The notes below the pieces were generated by a model. The model had not been told where the DNA came from. It searched no databases and saw nothing but the letters and a program-made list of their open reading frames with translations. A stretch of DNA of 64,000 nucleotides from Acidimicrobiia bacterium (GTDB lineage Bacteria > Actinomycetota > Acidimicrobiia > Spongiisociales > UBA5794). A program made the translations under genes and the position numbers. Positions 3,639 through 45,527 of the stretch are shown here, piece after piece; position 1 is the first letter of the stretch; every line of letters begins with the position of its first letter. The DNA lies in NCBI GenBank assembly GCA_051002015.1, contig JBPCMS010000078.1, positions 1,564 through 65,563 of the forward strand. The letters run 5' to 3'.

Positions 3639-3917
3639 ATGACGAGAAGCCTCAAGAAGGGCCCCTTCGTCGACGAGCATCTGCTGCGCAAGGTCGAGAC
3701 CGCCAACGACAGGGGCGAGAAGCGGGTCATCCGCACCTGGAGCCGTCGCTCCACGATCATCCCCGAGATGGTCGGCCACACCATCGCCGTCCACGACGGG
3801 CGCAAGCATGTGCCGGTGTACGTCAGCGAGTCGATGGTCGGCCACAAGCTGGGTGAGTTCGCCCCTACCCGCACCTTCCGTGGCCACGGCGGCGAGAAGG
3901 CGGCGAGGCGGCGATGA
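3639..3917 (+). CDS. rpsS: 30S ribosomal protein S19
   Basis: [16 protein letters not shown]...[33 protein letters not shown]. Confidence 0.98.
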
Positions 3918-7245: not shown

Positions 7246-7799
7246 CCCCCCGTTTCAAGCAGCGTTACCACGACGAGATCCGGGACCAGCTCCAGGAGCA
7301 CCTCGCCCTGGCCAACGTCATGGAGGTGCCCAGACTGCTCAAGATCGTGGTCAACATGGGGCTGGGGGACGCCGCCGCCGACTCCAAGCTGGTCGACGCC
7401 GCCGTCACCGACATGCGGGCGATCACCGGCCAGCAACCGAGGATCAACCGGGCCCGCAAGTCCATCGCCAACTTCAAGTTGCGCGAGGGGATGCCGATCG
7501 GTGTCTCGGCCACGCTGCGGGGCGACCGGATGTGGGAGTTCTTCGATCGGCTGGTCACCCTGGCCATCCCCAGGATCCGGGACTTCCGCGGGCTGAGCCC
7601 GACAGGGTTCGACGGGGCGGGCAACTACAGCTTCGGGGTCACCGAGCAGCTGATCTTCCCCGAGATCGAGTATGACCAGGTTGGCAAGGTTCGGGGCATG
7701 GACATCACGTTCGTGACCACGGCGAAGAGCGACGAACAGGGCCGCGCCTTCCTCGAAGCGTTCGGTTTCCCGTTCCGGCGGCAACAGGCAGGTGTGTGA
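7242..7799 (+). CDS. rplE: 50S ribosomal protein L5
   Basis: [18 protein letters not shown]...[27 protein letters not shown]...[11 protein letters not shown]. Confidence 0.97.
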
Positions 7800-25732: not shown

Positions 25733-26485
25733 ATGACCACCTGGCGGATCGACCTCGCCTACGACGGGACCGGCTTCCACGGCTACGCCCGCCAGCAGGC
25801 GGTGCGCACCGTCCAGGGTGAGCTGGAGACGGCGCTCGAGCCGTTCACCGGGCCGGTGCCGACCTTTGTCGCCGGGCGCACCGACCGCGGGGTCCACGCC
25901 ACCGGGCAGGTGGTCAGCTTCGCCACCGAGACACCCATCGACCCGGTCAGGGTGGTGCGGTCGCTCAACCGCCGGCTGGGCCCCGAGATCGCGGTCAAGC
26001 GGCTGGTGGCGGCTGCCGACGGCTTCCATGCCCGGTTCTCGGCGGTGGGTAGGGCCTATGAGTACCTGATCCTCGACGGCGAGGTTCCCGACCCGTTCCT
26101 GTCCAGCATCTCGTGGCACCTCGGCCATGCGCTCGACGTCGACGCCATGGACGAGGCCGCCGCCGCCCTGATCGGCGAGCACGATTTCGCCGCCTTCTGT
26201 CGCCGTGCCGAGCAGCGGAGCACGATCCGTCTGGTGCGCACCGCCCGCTGGGAGCGGCGGCGCCCCGATCTGGTGGTGTTCACCATCGAGGCATCCTCGT
26301 TCTGCCACCAGATGGTCCGCTCGGTGGTGGCCAGCTGCGCCCGGATCGGTCGTGGGGCGGCATCACCGGGCTCGATGGCCGACGTGATCGCCTCCCGGGA
26401 CCGGTCCCTCACCGCGGGGCCGGCCCCACCTCACGGGCTCACCCTGGTCAGGATCGACTACCCCGCAGACCTTCCCGAACCTTAG
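25733..26485 (+). CDS. truA: tRNA pseudouridine(38-40) synthase
   Basis: MTTWRIDLAYDGTGFHGYARQ...VAGRTDRGVHATGQVVSF...HDFAAFC. Confidence 0.93.
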   Translation: MTTWRIDLAYDGTGFHGYARQQAVRTVQGELETALEPFTGPVPTFVAGRTDRGVHATGQVVSFATETPIDPVRVVRSLNRRLGPEIAVKRLVAAADGFHARFSAVGRAYEYLILDGEVPDPFLSSISWHLGHALDVDAMDEAAAALIGEHDFAAFCRRAEQRSTIRLVRTARWERRRPDLVVFTIEASSFCHQMVRSVVASCARIGRGAASPGSMADVIASRDRSLTAGPAPPHGLTLVRIDYPADLPEP

Positions 26486-26528
26486 GTTCTGCGTACCCCT
26501 GGCGAGTACCAATCCGCTGAAGTTCGGG
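26477..26528 (+). promoter_or_regulatory. conserved bipartite element GAACCTTAGGTT-N23-ATCCGCTGAAGTTCGGG (copy 1, upstream of rplM); promoter or RNA leader of unknown type
   Basis: The identical 12-mer and 17-mer occur at identical 23-nt spacing at 57158-57209. An internal TGGCG is also conserved. Confidence 0.5.
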
Positions 26529-28853: not shown

Positions 28854-28947
28854 CGGGCCATATCGGCCGCCAGACCCATGGCGAACCCGCCAGGCTGCCC
28901 TAAGCTCCTCGACATCAATCGAAACCGACCGGGCTCTCGCGTCTTCC

Positions 28948-29086
28948 AGCGCCAGCCCTCGCCCCCGTGGTGAGGTGACGAGGAAGAGGGATCATCGAGC
29001 AGTCGGCGGGTGCCCTCTCGGCCGCCCACGGCCGTAGGGACGGAGCAAACCCCGGGGGCGACCCCGGGAACAGAGGCCGTCCCGTG
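28948..29086 (+). ncRNA. glmS ribozyme: glmS ribozyme (GlcN6P-responsive self-cleaving riboswitch)
   Basis: AGCGCCAG...GACGAGG...TCGGCGGGTGCCCTC...GGCCGTAGGGA...CAAACCCCGGGGGCGACCCCGGGAAC matches, block by block, the conserved core I recall from Bacillus/Thermoanaerobacter glmS ribozymes. It ends 65 nt upstream of the glmS ATG. Confidence 0.85.
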
Positions 29087-29150
29087 TGGGGAGCGGAGCG
29101 ATCTCCGCTCGAGTGCCTCCGGTCGCACGACACAGGAGGTCGATGCGCGC

Positions 29151-33378: not shown

Positions 33379-34499
33379 TGAGACCGACCTGGGTGGAGAT
33401 CGACCTTGACGCCATCGCCCACAACGTCGCCCTGATCGCCGCCGAGGTGGCCCCCGCCTTCCTGTGCGCCGTGGTCAAGGCGGATGCTTACGGCCACGGC
33501 GACGTCCCCGTTGCCGAGACCGCCCTCGCCTCCGGCGCCTCCCGGCTGGCGGTGGCGTTGGTGGAGGAGGGCGTCCGGTTGCGCGAGGCCGGCATCGAGG
33601 CGCCGATCCTGGTGCTGTCCGAGCCGGACCCGGGCGACGCAGGCGAGCTGTCGGCCTGGGGGCTCACCCCTTCGGTCTACACCACCCGGTTCGTGCATGC
33701 GCTGGCCGCCACCGGGGCGCTCCACAACGTCCATCTCAAGGTCGACACCGGGATGCACCGGGTGGGCGCCGACCCCGGCCACGTCGGGGGACTGGCGGAC
33801 GCCATCGCCGCCTCCCCGAACCTGACCCTCGAGGCGGTGTGGACCCATTTCGCCGTCTCCGAGGAGGACGCCGACTACACCGCGGCGCAGATCGGCCGGC
33901 TGGGCGCCACCCTCGAGATGCTCGCCGCCGCCGGCCACCATCCTCGGCTGGTCCACGCCGCCAACACGGCGGGGGCCATCGGCCGCACCGACGCCCGGTT
34001 CGACATGGTGCGTGCCGGGCTCGGCATCTACGGGATGCGGCCCGCCCCGGCCACCGCACCCCACCTCGACCTGAGGCCGGCGATGCGGGTGGTGTCCCAC
34101 ATCACTTTGCTCAGGCGTCTCGGGGCGGGCAGACGTCCCTCCTACGGCAGGCGCCGTCCGCTGCCGGCCGACGCCTGGGTGGCCACGGTCCCCATCGGGT
34201 ACGCCGACGGTGTCTCCAGGAGGTTGTCGGCGATCGGTGGCGAGGTCCTGATCGGCGGTCGCCGTCATCCATTCGCCGGCAGGGTGACCATGGATCAGGT
34301 GGTCGTGGACGTCGGCGACGCCACGTTCGACATCGGGGACGAGGTGGTGCTGCTGGGGGCGCAAGGGAGCGAGCGGATCAGCGCCGAGGAATGGGCGGGC
34401 GCCCTGGACACGGTCAACTACGAGATCGTGTGCCGGTTCGGGCCCAGGCTTCCCCGGCGCTACCTACCGTTTCTTAGGACCGAAACGCATCACACATGA
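33378..34499 (+). CDS. alr: alanine racemase (last about 11 codons are supplied by the palindromic element)
   Basis: MRPTWVEIDLDAIAHNV...CAVVKADAYGHGD (PLP Lys)...PIGYADGVSR...YEIVCRFGPRLPRRY. The tail LPFLRTETHHT is encoded by 34470-34499. Confidence 0.93.
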   Translation: MRPTWVEIDLDAIAHNVALIAAEVAPAFLCAVVKADAYGHGDVPVAETALASGASRLAVALVEEGVRLREAGIEAPILVLSEPDPGDAGELSAWGLTPSVYTTRFVHALAATGALHNVHLKVDTGMHRVGADPGHVGGLADAIAASPNLTLEAVWTHFAVSEEDADYTAAQIGRLGATLEMLAAAGHHPRLVHAANTAGAIGRTDARFDMVRAGLGIYGMRPAPATAPHLDLRPAMRVVSHITLLRRLGAGRRPSYGRRRPLPADAWVATVPIGYADGVSRRLSAIGGEVLIGGRRHPFAGRVTMDQVVVDVGDATFDIGDEVVLLGAQGSERISAEEWAGALDTVNYEIVCRFGPRLPRRYLPFLRTETHHT

Positions 34500-34519
34500 C
34501 GCGTTTCGGTCCTAAGAAA
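34470..34519. repeat. palindromic repeat element, copy A (19-bp perfect arms, 12-nt spacer)
   Basis: TTTCTTAGGACCGAAACGC-atcacacatgac-GCGTTTCGGTCCTAAGAAA. A second copy lies at 44600-44649. Confidence 0.9.
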
Positions 34520-34569: not shown

Positions 34570-35493
34570 TTGGAGCGCAGGGTTGGAGATGCGGTCGTGA
34601 TCGAGGGCGGCACCCTCACTTCGGTGCCGGGGGTGGAGGTGGGGCATTGGACCGACCTGGTCGCCCGCACCGGGGTAACCGTGATCACCTTCCCCGAGCC
34701 CAACCATGCCGCCGTCGAGGTGAGGGGCGGCGCCCCGGGGAGCAGGGAGACCGCGGTGCTCGGCCACGGCATGCGGGTGGAGACCATCCAGGCACTGGTG
34801 TTCTCCGGCGGATCGGCCTTCGGGCTGGCATCGGTCGACGGGGTGATGCGCCGTCTCGAGGCCGACGGCAGGGGTCATCCCACCCTGGTGGGGAGGGTTC
34901 CGATCGTCCCCGCCGCCGTGATCTACGACCTGGCGGTTGGCGACCCGACGGTGCGGCCCGGCCCGGACGAGGGGGCCGCCGCCTACGACGCCCGCCGCCG
35001 TCATCCGGTGGCGATGGGACGGGTGGGGGCCGGTGCGGGCGCCTCGGTGGCCGGATGGCGCGGTCCGGAGGCCCGCGGCGACGGCGGCATCGGATCGGCG
35101 GCGGTCGTCTGTGGTGACGTCACCGTCGGCGCCCTGGTGGTGGTCAACGCCGTCGGCGACGCCTTCACCCTCGAAGGCGAGCCGCTCACCGGCGGGCCCC
35201 ACGTGCCCGGCCCGAGCCCGGTGCGCCCTGCCGCCATCGAGCAGACCACCCTGGTGGCGGTGGCGGTTGACGGCCTGCTCTCCAGGGCGGAGCTGTCGAG
35301 GACGATCGTGCGCAGCCACGATGCCCTCGGGGCGTGCTTCCGTCCCGCCCACACCCGCTTCGACGGGGACGCCGTGTTCGCGGTGGCTTGTGGCGGGACC
35401 GCCTGCGACGTCGACGCCGTCGCCGAGGCCGCGTTCGAGGCGACCGGGCGGGCCATCGAGGCGGCGGTCAGGGCGGGGAAGGGGGCTTGGTGA
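34570..35493 (+). CDS. peptidase S58 / DmpA (P1 aminopeptidase) family protein
   Basis: GVEVGHWTD...TGVTVI...GGAPG(S/T)RET...GGSAFGL...NAVGD motifs. TTG start is uncertain. Confidence 0.75.
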   Translation: MERRVGDAVVIEGGTLTSVPGVEVGHWTDLVARTGVTVITFPEPNHAAVEVRGGAPGSRETAVLGHGMRVETIQALVFSGGSAFGLASVDGVMRRLEADGRGHPTLVGRVPIVPAAVIYDLAVGDPTVRPGPDEGAAAYDARRRHPVAMGRVGAGAGASVAGWRGPEARGDGGIGSAAVVCGDVTVGALVVVNAVGDAFTLEGEPLTGGPHVPGPSPVRPAAIEQTTLVAVAVDGLLSRAELSRTIVRSHDALGACFRPAHTRFDGDAVFAVACGGTACDVDAVAEAAFEATGRAIEAAVRAGKGAW

Positions 35494-38963: not shown

Positions 38964-38993
38964 GCGGCGGCCGGCAGACAAGGGCAGGATCCG

Positions 38994-39020
38994 TTAGCAG
39001 TCTGGCTCGACGAGTGCTAC
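38994..39020 (+). promoter_or_regulatory. CIRCE operator (HrcA site) 1
   Basis: TTAGCAGTC-N9-GAGTGCTAC compared with the consensus TTAGCACTC-N9-GAGTGCTAA. Confidence 0.85.
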
Positions 39021-39023
39021 ACT

Positions 39024-39050
39024 CTGGCATTCGCAGGCGCCGACTGCTAA
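39024..39050 (+). promoter_or_regulatory. degenerate second CIRCE-like inverted repeat
   Basis: CTGGCATTC-N9-GACTGCTAA. The right half matches 8/9, the left half is weaker. Confidence 0.5.
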
Positions 39051-39082
39051 CTCATCGGCGCTTACTGTCAGGAGGAGTCAAC

Positions 39083-43165: not shown

Positions 43166-44545
43166 TCAGGAGGACCGGTCGATCAACTCCCATAGGGCGT
43201 CGGTGTGGCGCTGCTCGGTGGTGGTCGAGCCGATGGCGACCCGGATGAAGGTGCGCTCGCCGAGCCGTGACGGGGTGACGTGGAACCGGCCGGAGCCGTT
43301 GATGGCGGCGACCACGGCGTCGGTGGCGGCGTCGCCGGCAACATGGCGGAAGCTCACCAAGCCGAAGGTGGTCGGAGCCACCAGTTCGAGCCGCCGGTCG
43401 GCCTCGACCCGTCCGGTCAGCCGCTGCGCCATCTCGATGTGCCGCTGCACGTGGTGTCTGATCCCCTCGGCGCCGTAGCTGCGCAGCACGAACCACAGCT
43501 TGAGCGCCCGGAACCTGCGGCCGAGGGGGACATGCCAGTTGCGGTAGTCGATCACCTTGGCGGTGTCCGTCGCCTTGTTGCGCAGGTACGGCGGGGTGAT
43601 CGACAACGTGTCGAGCAGGGGGCGCCGATCGGCCACCCAGAACACCGAGCAGTCGAAGTTGGTGAACATCCACTTGTGCGGGTTGAAGACGTAGCTGTCG
43701 ACCAGCTCGAGCCCGTCCTGGTGGTGGCGGAACTCGGGGAGGATCATGGCGGTCCCGGCGTAGGCGGCGTCGACGTGATGCCACATGCCGTGTTGCCTGG
43801 CGATGCCGGCGATGGCGCCCACCGGGTCGACCGCCGTGGTCCCGGTGGTCCCCACCGTCGAGCACACGAACCCAGGGGTGAGCCTGTGGGCGATGTCGGC
43901 GGCGACCGCCGCTTCCAAGGCATCCGGGTCCATGGCGTAGACGGCGTCGACGTCGATCAGCCGGAGATGCCGGTAGCCGGCCACCCTCGCCCCCTTCTCC
44001 ACGGAAGAGTGCGCCTGCTGGGAGGCGTACGCCACCAGATCGGCCGGGTCGGCCGAGGCACCAATCCGGTGGCGGGCAACCACCAGTGCGGTGTGGGTCG
44101 AGTCCGATGCGCTCATCTGGATGACGCCCCCGCCCGGGCCGTCGGTGCGCCACCCGGCAGGGACGCCGAGCAGCTCGACCAGCCAGTCGAGCACCGCGGT
44201 CTCGATCTCGGTGCAGGCGGGGCTGGTCGCCCACAGCATCCCCTGCTGGCCTAGCCCGGTCGACACCAGGTCGCCGAGGATCCCGGCCCCGGAGCCGTTG
44301 GCGGGGAAGTAACCGAACCAGCCGGGTGCCTGCCAATGGACGAGACCTGGCATGACGATCTCGTCGAGGTCGGCCAGGATCGCACCGAACGGCTCCGGGG
44401 ACTCCGGCGCCCTCTCGGGGAGCCTGTCCCTGATGGCGCCCGGCCGGATGTCTGGGGTGATCGGGTGCGTCTCGACGTCCGCCATGTAGTCCGCCAGCCA
44501 GTCGATGACGGCGTGGCCATTGCGGCGGAAGTCCTCGGGGGACAT
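43166..44545 (-). CDS. PLP-dependent aromatic-L-amino-acid/group II decarboxylase
   Basis: HWQAPGWFGYFPAN...SASDSTHTAL...HVDAAYAG...FNPHKW (PLP lysine). The ATG at 44545 is preferred. The ORF-track start at 44620 lies in the palindromic element. Confidence 0.85.
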   Translation of the reverse strand: MSPEDFRRNGHAVIDWLADYMADVETHPITPDIRPGAIRDRLPERAPESPEPFGAILADLDEIVMPGLVHWQAPGWFGYFPANGSGAGILGDLVSTGLGQQGMLWATSPACTEIETAVLDWLVELLGVPAGWRTDGPGGGVIQMSASDSTHTALVVARHRIGASADPADLVAYASQQAHSSVEKGARVAGYRHLRLIDVDAVYAMDPDALEAAVAADIAHRLTPGFVCSTVGTTGTTAVDPVGAIAGIARQHGMWHHVDAAYAGTAMILPEFRHHQDGLELVDSYVFNPHKWMFTNFDCSVFWVADRRPLLDTLSITPPYLRNKATDTAKVIDYRNWHVPLGRRFRALKLWFVLRSYGAEGIRHHVQRHIEMAQRLTGRVEADRRLELVAPTTFGLVSFRHVAGDAATDAVVAAINGSGRFHVTPSRLGERTFIRVAIGSTTTEQRHTDALWELIDRSS

Positions 44546-44599
44546 GTGGTATCCGGGCTCGGTCACGCCGATCACCCTAGAGCCCGACCACCCATCCCG

Positions 44600-44732: not shown

Positions 44733-45527
44733 GTGGAGGATCTGAAGGGCCGGGTGGCGGTGGTCACCGGGGGAGCGAGCGGGATCGGGCGCGCCCTGGT
44801 CGAGCGGTTCGCCGCCGAGGGGATGAGGGTGGTCGCCGCAGACATCGACGGCGACGCCATTGCCGCCGTGGCGGTCGCCACCGGGGCCACCGGGCGCCGG
44901 TTGGATGTGTCCGACGGTCCGGCGACGGCCACGCTGGTGGCCGAGGTCGAGGACACCCTCGGTCCCGTCGATCTGTTCTGTATGAACGCCGGCATCGCCA
45001 CCGCCGGCGGGGTCGAGCTGTCCGACACCGACTGGCAACGGACCTGGGACGTCAACGTGATGGCACACGTCTACGCCGCCCGCGCCGTGCTCCCCTCGAT
45101 GCTGGCCAGGGGCGAGGGCCATCTGCTCCACACCGCGTCCGCCGCCGGGCTGCTCACCAACATCGGGGCGGCCGCCTATGCGGTGACCAAGCACGCCGTC
45201 GTCGCCCTGGCCGAGTGGCTCTCGGTGACCTACGGCGACCAGGGCATCAAGGTCTCGTGCCTGTGTCCCCAGTTCGTGTCGACCCCGATGCTCGGCGCCT
45301 TCGATGCCGGCGGCGACATGCGGCGGTGGGTCGACGGGCTGGCGGTGACCACGGAACAGGTGGCGGACGCCGTCGTCGACGGGCTGCTCGCCGGCCGCTT
45401 CCTCATCCTGCCCCACCCCGAGGTCGGCGACTACTACGCCGCCAAGGCGGCAGACCCCGAACGCTGGCTGGGCGGGATGCGCAAGCTCCAGGCCAGGCTC
45501 AACTATCAGCCGCCACCCCTGGGGTGA
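44733..45527 (+). CDS. short-chain dehydrogenase/reductase (SDR)
   Basis: VAVVTGGASGIGRAL...NAG...YAVTKHAV (YxxxK). GTG start. Confidence 0.88.
   Translation: MEDLKGRVAVVTGGASGIGRALVERFAAEGMRVVAADIDGDAIAAVAVATGATGRRLDVSDGPATATLVAEVEDTLGPVDLFCMNAGIATAGGVELSDTDWQRTWDVNVMAHVYAARAVLPSMLARGEGHLLHTASAAGLLTNIGAAAYAVTKHAVVALAEWLSVTYGDQGIKVSCLCPQFVSTPMLGAFDAGGDMRRWVDGLAVTTEQVADAVVDGLLAGRFLILPHPEVGDYYAAKAADPERWLGGMRKLQARLNYQPPPLG

Follow-up and report, generated by a model that had tools for sequence, protein, structure and literature searches.

The alanine racemase gene alr of an uncultured Acidimicrobiia bacterium ends in a 50-bp palindrome that belongs to a family of short repeats. This palindrome lies in a stretch of 64,000 nucleotides (the window; contig JBPCMS010000078.1 of assembly GCA_051002015.1, corresponding to G000:C78:1564-65563 of the source genome G000), and all positions given below without a contig name follow the numbering of this window. 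[quoted passage not shown] They make up a new family within an already known kind of sequence, the small non-autonomous palindromic repeats. The element is a rigid 50-bp block with sharp bounds and near-invariant ends that occupies new sites between strains without target duplication, and it has multiplied independently in different species, with different inner stems.

Copy A has the structure TTTCTTAGGACCGAAACGC-ATCACACATGAC-GCGTTTCGGTCCTAAGAAA with perfect arms of 19 nt, as had been described in the initial annotation. The pairing extends, with a single mismatch, into ATCACACATGAC and leaves a loop of 4 nt. From the outside to the inside the palindrome, to which no strand is assigned, comprises the outer arms TTTCTTAGGA/TCCTAAGAAA, a middle part (CCGAAA/TTTCGG), an inner stem (CGCATC/GACGCG), and a loop of 4-6 nt. 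Its G+C content of 46% is far below that of the genome (69.8%), in line with the earlier remark that it is richer in A+T than its surroundings. The predicted folding energies are -51.3 kcal/mol for RNA (z = -9.9 relative to shuffled sequences) and -23.6 kcal/mol for DNA (z = -11.8). When the window was searched for the arm sequence with at most three mismatches, four matches were obtained, namely both arms of both copies, compared with 0.00 in shuffled sequence. Copy B differs from copy A at 8 of 50 positions (84% identity), close to the 85% given before. It is situated between divergent gene starts, those of a gene for a decarboxylase dependent on pyridoxal phosphate (43166-44575, minus strand) and of a short-chain dehydrogenase/reductase gene (44733-45527, plus strand).

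The source genome is a metagenome-assembled genome (MAG) that is 94% complete, with 2.35 Mb distributed over 117 contigs. It was searched for the pattern CTTAGGA-N30-TCCTAAG, allowing at most one mismatch in each 7-mer. This search yielded 48 intact copies, every one of them exactly 50 bp long, and no other spacing was found more than once. The 7-mer CTTAGGA occurs just 52 times genome-wide, so that nearly every occurrence is part of an element. A profile search with nhmmer added five decayed copies. The initial annotation had left open whether the palindrome is a REP/MITE-like mobile element or a protein-binding site; the first of these suggestions is supported by the number of copies, by the lack of the element at the alr end of four sister species, and by two filled and empty strain sites (see below). 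The opposite situation, only two copies that are both at conserved orthologous sites, was looked for and does not apply.

The copies share the invariant ends TTTCTTAGGA...TCCTAAGAAA, and the whole element can be described as two inverted arms of 24-25 nt with invariant tips. From the 96 arms the half-site consensus TTTCTTAGGA-Y-C-G-R-A-A-CGC-G-TC-A-C-N was derived. The profile of these arms has a sharp edge at arm position 1, the outer flank being just mildly C-rich. Positions 2-10, 12, 17-19, and 21-22 are near-invariant, including positions that were not constrained by the search, and positions 11, 13, 14, 16, 20, 23, and 24 are very variable. About ten variants of the arm can be distinguished, and these are freely combined. 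The target-site duplications that the initial annotation had proposed to look for are lacking: flanking direct repeats of at least 3 nt were found at 0 of the 48 copies, and the complementarity between the two flanks of these copies was the same as for shuffled pairings.

Direct evidence for insertion comes from closely related strains. A scan of metagenomes for the G000-type element gave 51 loci from one Joint Genome Institute sample series, Ga0136616-Ga0136633. With flanks that match G000 at 94-100% identity, these loci represent strain-level relatives. Most of the copies occupy the same sites as in G000, with two exceptions. Locus L083 is filled where the corresponding site on G000:C47, near position 3870, is empty, and locus L099 is filled where G000:C102 is empty near position 7330, the flanks being 96-98% identical in both cases. 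The inserted block measures 46-50 nt with an ambiguity or overlap of at most 1 nt at the joints, which means that no target duplication was generated at either site. The C47 site is also empty in the outgroups G002-G004; the filled allele is therefore the derived one. At this site the convergent gene ends with ...EPDVQG-TAG in the empty state and with ...EPDVS-TAG in the filled state, in which the TAG is provided by the element. This is the same process as the one inferred for alr, seen here in both states. The strains also differ in the number of tandem copies, a difference that arises when the element is duplicated along with 15-27 nt of adjoining sequence.

The distribution among relatives is narrow. 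Of 41 genomes that represent the genus, its family, and its order, two only had the G000-type pattern (at most two mismatches), namely G000 with 48 copies and its congener G001 (Acidimicrobiia bacterium MGR_bin274) with 22 copies; the three other congeners and 36 further relatives contained none. The G001 copies have an A/T outermost pair and the inner stem CGCGCC..GGCGCG, and the sites filled in G001 are empty in G000. When 185,579 species were scanned, each represented by one genome, 13 copies of 51 bp came to light in SMAG_U8718 (G384), which belongs to the same order and to another family. These copies have the ends TTCTTAGGA/TCCTAAGAA as in G000, and their interior is unrelated but self-complementary (CCCARAGGGGCCG...CGGCCCCTYTGGG). 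When 401 Acidimicrobiia genomes sampled across the class were searched for the pattern of the termini, only G000 and SMAG_U8718 were positive. Single palindromes with the same ends, yet with other interiors, were encountered in two more Acidimicrobiia MAGs and two Chloroflexota MAGs.

In L027 (G001 contig C185), compared with G000:C115:4642-6880, the first 369 bp through a G000-type palindrome copy are 100% identical and the remainder is about 86% identical. This reflects either a chimeric assembly with its junction in the repeat or a stretch of recombination that stops there.

The position of the copies relative to genes was examined with our own gene caller, which is based on the G+C content of the third codon position (2189 genes, 86.5% coverage). 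All 48 copies lie outside genes or overlap no more than a gene's final codons, and the typical distance to a stop codon is below 30 nt. The flanking genes are convergent at 16 copies, divergent at 12, and in tandem orientation at 19; one copy is beside a contig end. The neighbouring genes are functionally unrelated, and most copies are found among housekeeping genes in conserved order. The consensus carries the stop codons TAG (element positions 6-8), TGA (28-30), and TAA (44-46), and by symmetry the same stops on the other strand, so that all six reading frames are closed; as a consequence, the element is tolerated at gene ends. Fourteen genes end inside a copy, 11 at the TAG, two at the TGA (alr and the gene at C31:39426), and one at the TAA (at G000:C64:25340). 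A copy landing in the last codons therefore truncates and re-terminates the gene within 2-15 codons, as has happened at alr and at the 13 other genes of G000.

In the case of alr (33393..34499, plus strand; Pfam Ala_racemase_N/C in the homologues) the reading frame enters the left arm and stops in the loop at the TGA 34497-34499, in agreement with the initial annotation. The protein ends with ...PRRY-LP-FLRTETHHT*. Two residues (LP) are kept after RRY, and of the 11 codons of the tail the final nine (FLRTETHHT) together with the stop are element sequence (34470..34499, TTT CTT AGG ACC GAA ACG CAT CAC ACA TGA). The TAG in the second frame (34475..34477) is not used by alr, and the TAA of the third frame lies at 34513..34515; all three stops are read on the plus strand. 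It had been argued that racemases normally end near the RRY and that the longer tail points to an insertion. This argument does not hold: after PR(R/T)Y the racemase of G001 continues for 14 residues (LAATAEEPGWRATR) and those of G003 and G004 for nine residues each (SSGAGRGLR and SAGGRPGPR*), while more distant Acidimicrobiia have 2-6 residues. An 11-residue tail is an ordinary length for the genus, in which tails of 9-14 residues are normal, and tail length by itself is therefore not evidence of insertion. The claim that the element inserted at, or replaced, the original stop is retained on other grounds, namely that the end of alr is without the element in the four sister species G001-G004 and that the filled and empty C47 site demonstrates the rewriting of a gene end. 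The intergenic DNA of these sister species is too diverged (coding identity about 78-80%) to place the insertion point at alr, and the comparison establishes the absence of the element only. A strain with 97.5% identity from the European Nucleotide Archive (ENA) assemblies of the ERZ272524xx series carries copy A with two base changes at the same site and with the same protein tail. Copy A landed in the last codons of alr and re-terminated the gene, with LP kept and followed by nine element codons and the TGA.

As to the mechanism, a folded single strand or a cruciform is probably the form in which the unit moves, and the conserved A+T-rich foot of 10 bp would be recognised by an enzyme acting in trans. 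We infer transposition of a folded strand because families that share only their ends all keep a self-complementary interior and because insertion leaves no target duplication. A self-complementary interior is not needed by a protein that binds the duplex. Single-strand (HUH) and recombinase mechanisms typically transpose without such a duplication, as known from IS200/IS605 and from REP sequences and their REP-associated tyrosine transposases (RAYT) (PMC3733652, PMC3116915). No host function has to be postulated, and effects on mRNA 3' ends or on nearby promoters would be a by-product.

Several observations weigh against a mobile element of this kind. Within G000 the two arms do not co-vary (258 Watson–Crick pairs at the variable positions compared with 265 +/- 8 when the arms were shuffled between copies), so there is no direct support for a hairpin intermediate, and the argument for the hairpin is confined to the comparison between families. 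Only two clean gains were seen in about 50 strain loci, indicating that the activity is low or past. That the ends are near-invariant could in part be due to selection on a host function and not on mobility. The divergence between strains is 3.2% in the element and 4.1% in the flanks; this comparison is biased and circular, as the loci were picked for intact ends, and no claim of purifying selection is derived from it. Furthermore, a gene for the mobilising enzyme was not apparent. The RAYT/IS200 domain Y1_Tnp (PF01797) was found in none of the genomes G000, G001-G004, and G041, while the positive controls scored, and the zinc ribbon of TnpB (PF07282) was not found either. The G000 assembly, in which repeated insertion sequences may be unassembled, contains neither a longer element that shares these ends nor any unpaired arms save the five decayed copies. 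Since the MAGs are 88-94% complete, the absence of a gene from them is not proof.

The cognate RAYT/IS200-like transposase that the initial annotation had proposed to look for was thus not found in the element-bearing MAGs, and the mobilising enzyme is probably not a tyrosine transposase of this type. Tyrosine recombinases (PF00589) did not provide a candidate, as only Xer-like and scattered other proteins were detected, in genomes with and without elements. Genes of the IS110 family (PF01548) are present in all three element-bearing genomes (G000, G001, and SMAG_U8718) and in none of three element-free congeners. The IS110-family transposase genes are located at G000:C85:10577-11124, on G001:C355 and C178, and on G041:C205; the one in G000, situated at a contig end, is the sole transposase found in this genome. 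No element sequence was detected near any IS110 copy. The IS110 recombinase is a weak lead for the mobiliser, six genomes being too few to judge. An element-free segment of 1.27 kb beside G000:C82:731 was considered as a transposase candidate and rejected, as it represents a frameshifted HD-domain/LuxR regulator gene. This HD-domain/LuxR-type helix–turn–helix regulator gene, apparently split by a frameshift, lies between two palindrome copies (G000:C82:870-2431).

We considered alternatives that do without a mobile element. The palindrome could mainly be an RNA element, that is, a stable 3' hairpin which terminates transcription or shields the mRNA from 3' exonucleases. The predicted hairpin is very stable, most copies are at most 30 nt from a stop codon with 16 of them between convergent genes, and effects of REPs on termination and mRNA protection have been reported (PMC3733652, PMC3479197). 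However, 12 copies including copy B are placed between divergent gene starts, and on both strands a U-rich run precedes and an A-rich run follows the stem. In copy A the sequence AAGAAA is found 3' of the hairpin on both strands with the T-rich run on the 5' side, and a canonical intrinsic terminator, already doubted in the initial annotation, is ruled out by this wrong placement of the T-run together with the 12 copies between divergent starts. Nor do the arms co-vary. Among the 20 copies that lie at the 3' end of one gene only, the mRNA-sense strand has 16 G·U pairs and 18 A·C mismatches. The G·U pairs are thus not in excess, and selection for an RNA hairpin is not detectable. No Rfam family matched, apart from sub-threshold generic hairpin hits to miRNA models, and the insertion of blocks at new sites in strains is left unexplained. 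Taken together, a mainly RNA-level role appears unlikely to us. Even further from what we would expect is a regulon, in which a single dimeric DNA-binding regulator would use the copies as its operators, each with two TTCTTAGGA half-sites separated by about four helical turns. The independent variation of the arms, the arrangement of the conserved positions in discrete blocks like half-sites contacted by a protein, and the 12 copies in divergent promoter regions would fit such a regulator. On the other hand, 16 of 47 classified copies are found between convergent gene ends without a promoter and 14 overlap coding 3' ends, the adjoining genes are functionally unrelated, and the sites are not shared with sister species. 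Moreover, the spacer is palindromic in every family despite its different sequence, which is unneeded for a double-stranded operator, and new copies come as 50-bp blocks. We regard the operator explanation as highly improbable.

Recombination is a further alternative, as the palindromes might be recombination sites (attC-like or targets of a bridge RNA) for cassettes of single genes, with the solo copies as empty sites. The conserved ends and the variable self-complementary centre resemble attC, and IS110 recombinases accompany the element as described above. At G000:C84:19357-19893 two copies bracket one gene encoding a 134-residue protein with the F420H2_quin_red domain, whereas a strain with 95% identity (L068:753-802) has one copy and lacks this gene and a part of the upstream gene. 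Likewise, at G000:C72:6058-6814 a gene pair for a FitA-like ribbon–helix–helix antitoxin and a PIN toxin is bracketed by two decayed copies. Both of these have the same non-canonical left end, which gives the impression that the arrival of the cassette duplicated a decayed copy. Against recombination sites speak the absence of arrays and of an integron-type integrase context, ends unlike the attC core sites, and the lack of element sequence beside the IS110 copies. Homologous recombination between two 50-bp repeats accounts equally well for C84, and most copies lie among housekeeping genes in conserved order. A dedicated recombination site is accordingly very unlikely in our opinion. A strain deletion beside the C30 copy was also considered as element-mediated and was rejected; it removed an internal part of a gene, between short stretches of similar sequence that lie about 17 nt away from the element.

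Interpreted as a mobile palindrome, the element can be compared with known repeats. REP sequences and REPINs (REP doublets forming hairpins) owe their mobility to tyrosine transposases of the RAYT type (Nunvar 2010; Bertels & Rainey 2011 (PMC3116915); PMC3337134). Like the 50-bp element they are short extragenic palindromes with tens to hundreds of copies, lineage-specific and without target duplication; they are found near gene 3' ends, consist of a master sequence with near variants, and occur in tandem and clustered copies. In contrast to REP/REPIN, the 50-bp element does not have the GTAG tag and a RAYT was found in none of its three carrier genomes. It is a single palindrome conserved at the foot of the stem and not two REP hairpins with a spacer. 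The closest described parallel are the CGTC-tagged REPs (Di Nocera et al. 2013, PMC3733652), which are palindromic and patchily distributed and have no associated transposase gene. CGTC is also present in the G000 consensus, at positions 19-22; however, it is located beside the loop and not at an end as a REP tag, and it is not kept in the sister families, which have CGCC (G001) and GGCCG (G384). Also, the stems of the CGTC REPs comprise 8-9 bp (PMC3733652), compared with about 22 bp in the 50-bp element. The word Actinobacteria is absent from the text of this survey (0 occurrences). A text search of the literature with the terminal 9-mers returned unrelated primer matches only.

MITEs such as Correia/NEMIS, ERIC, and MITEAba12 share with the element that they are non-autonomous and intergenic, sometimes extending into coding ends, and have inverted termini with conserved tips. 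They are usually longer than 100 bp with a non-palindromic interior and with target-site duplications made by a DDE transposase, none of which applies to the 50-bp element. A MITE of the DDE type was ruled against, as insertion does not duplicate the target and the search for a parent insertion sequence with matching ends was negative. Small actinobacterial or rickettsial repeats that reach into the ends of neighbouring genes or join the coding sequence are further known as mycobacterial interspersed repetitive units (MIRU) and Rickettsia palindromic elements (RPE), and the element is similar in this respect. MIRUs consist of direct repeats arranged in tandem within operon spacers and are not palindromes, and RPEs insert in frame within genes. 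The 50-bp element differs from both in closing all frames and in being tolerated only at the extreme 3' end of genes. Integron attC sites have conserved inverse ends and a variable, imperfectly self-complementary centre, and recognition of the folded strand, as proposed here for the element, is a common feature. But attC sites possess the cores RYYYAAC...GTTRRRY, form arrays, and have intI nearby, whereas the element has the ends TTCTTAGGA/TCCTAAGAA and occurs in dispersed single copies without an integrase context. With considerable reservation, we put forward the broader idea that the TTCTTAGGA-footed palindromes might be a further tagged REP-like super-family beside GTAG and CGTC. An enzyme other than RAYT, maybe linked to IS110, would read the folded single-strand foot, and pairs of copies might capture and release single genes such as the F420-reductase gene or the vapBC-like pair.

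Some other features were observed in the window and in the source genome. Downstream of copy A a Peptidase_S58/DmpA-like gene (34597..35493, plus strand) starts 77 nt past the palindrome. A glmS ribozyme/riboswitch (Rfam RF00234, 87 bits) is located at 28937-29093 on the plus strand upstream of glmS. Just upstream of groES (39083) there is an inverted repeat (TTAGCAGTC...GACTGCTAA, 38988-39056) which resembles a CIRCE/HrcA operator. The ENA strain contig L118 loses its synteny with the window at about 26471; its upstream genes are gatCAB, in place of the rpoA-rplQ-truA found upstream in the sister contig L117. The sequence at 26477-26528, where this break falls, does not belong to the family of the 50-bp palindrome. 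Outside the window, G000:C19:880-1400 contains an intergenic stretch of 466 bp that is full of another type of repeat, consisting of CCCCTCCC...GGGAGGGG palindromes and tandem GCCGGGGTGGGAT units. At the equivalent position G001 has 82 bp only, including one copy of the 50-bp palindrome.

The palindromes described here provide a strain-resolved case of a tiny mobile palindrome rewriting the C-termini of proteins, with one gene seen in both states (PDVQG* and PDVS*). In G000, 14 genes including the essential alr end at stops borne by the element. For the annotation of such genomes this means that gene ends and conserved motifs beside the copies should not be taken as regulatory sites. The family adds a repeat without RAYT and without target duplication from a poorly known class of uncultured actinobacteria, and its conserved ends together with the freely varying self-complementary interior are a handle for finding the enzyme that moves it.

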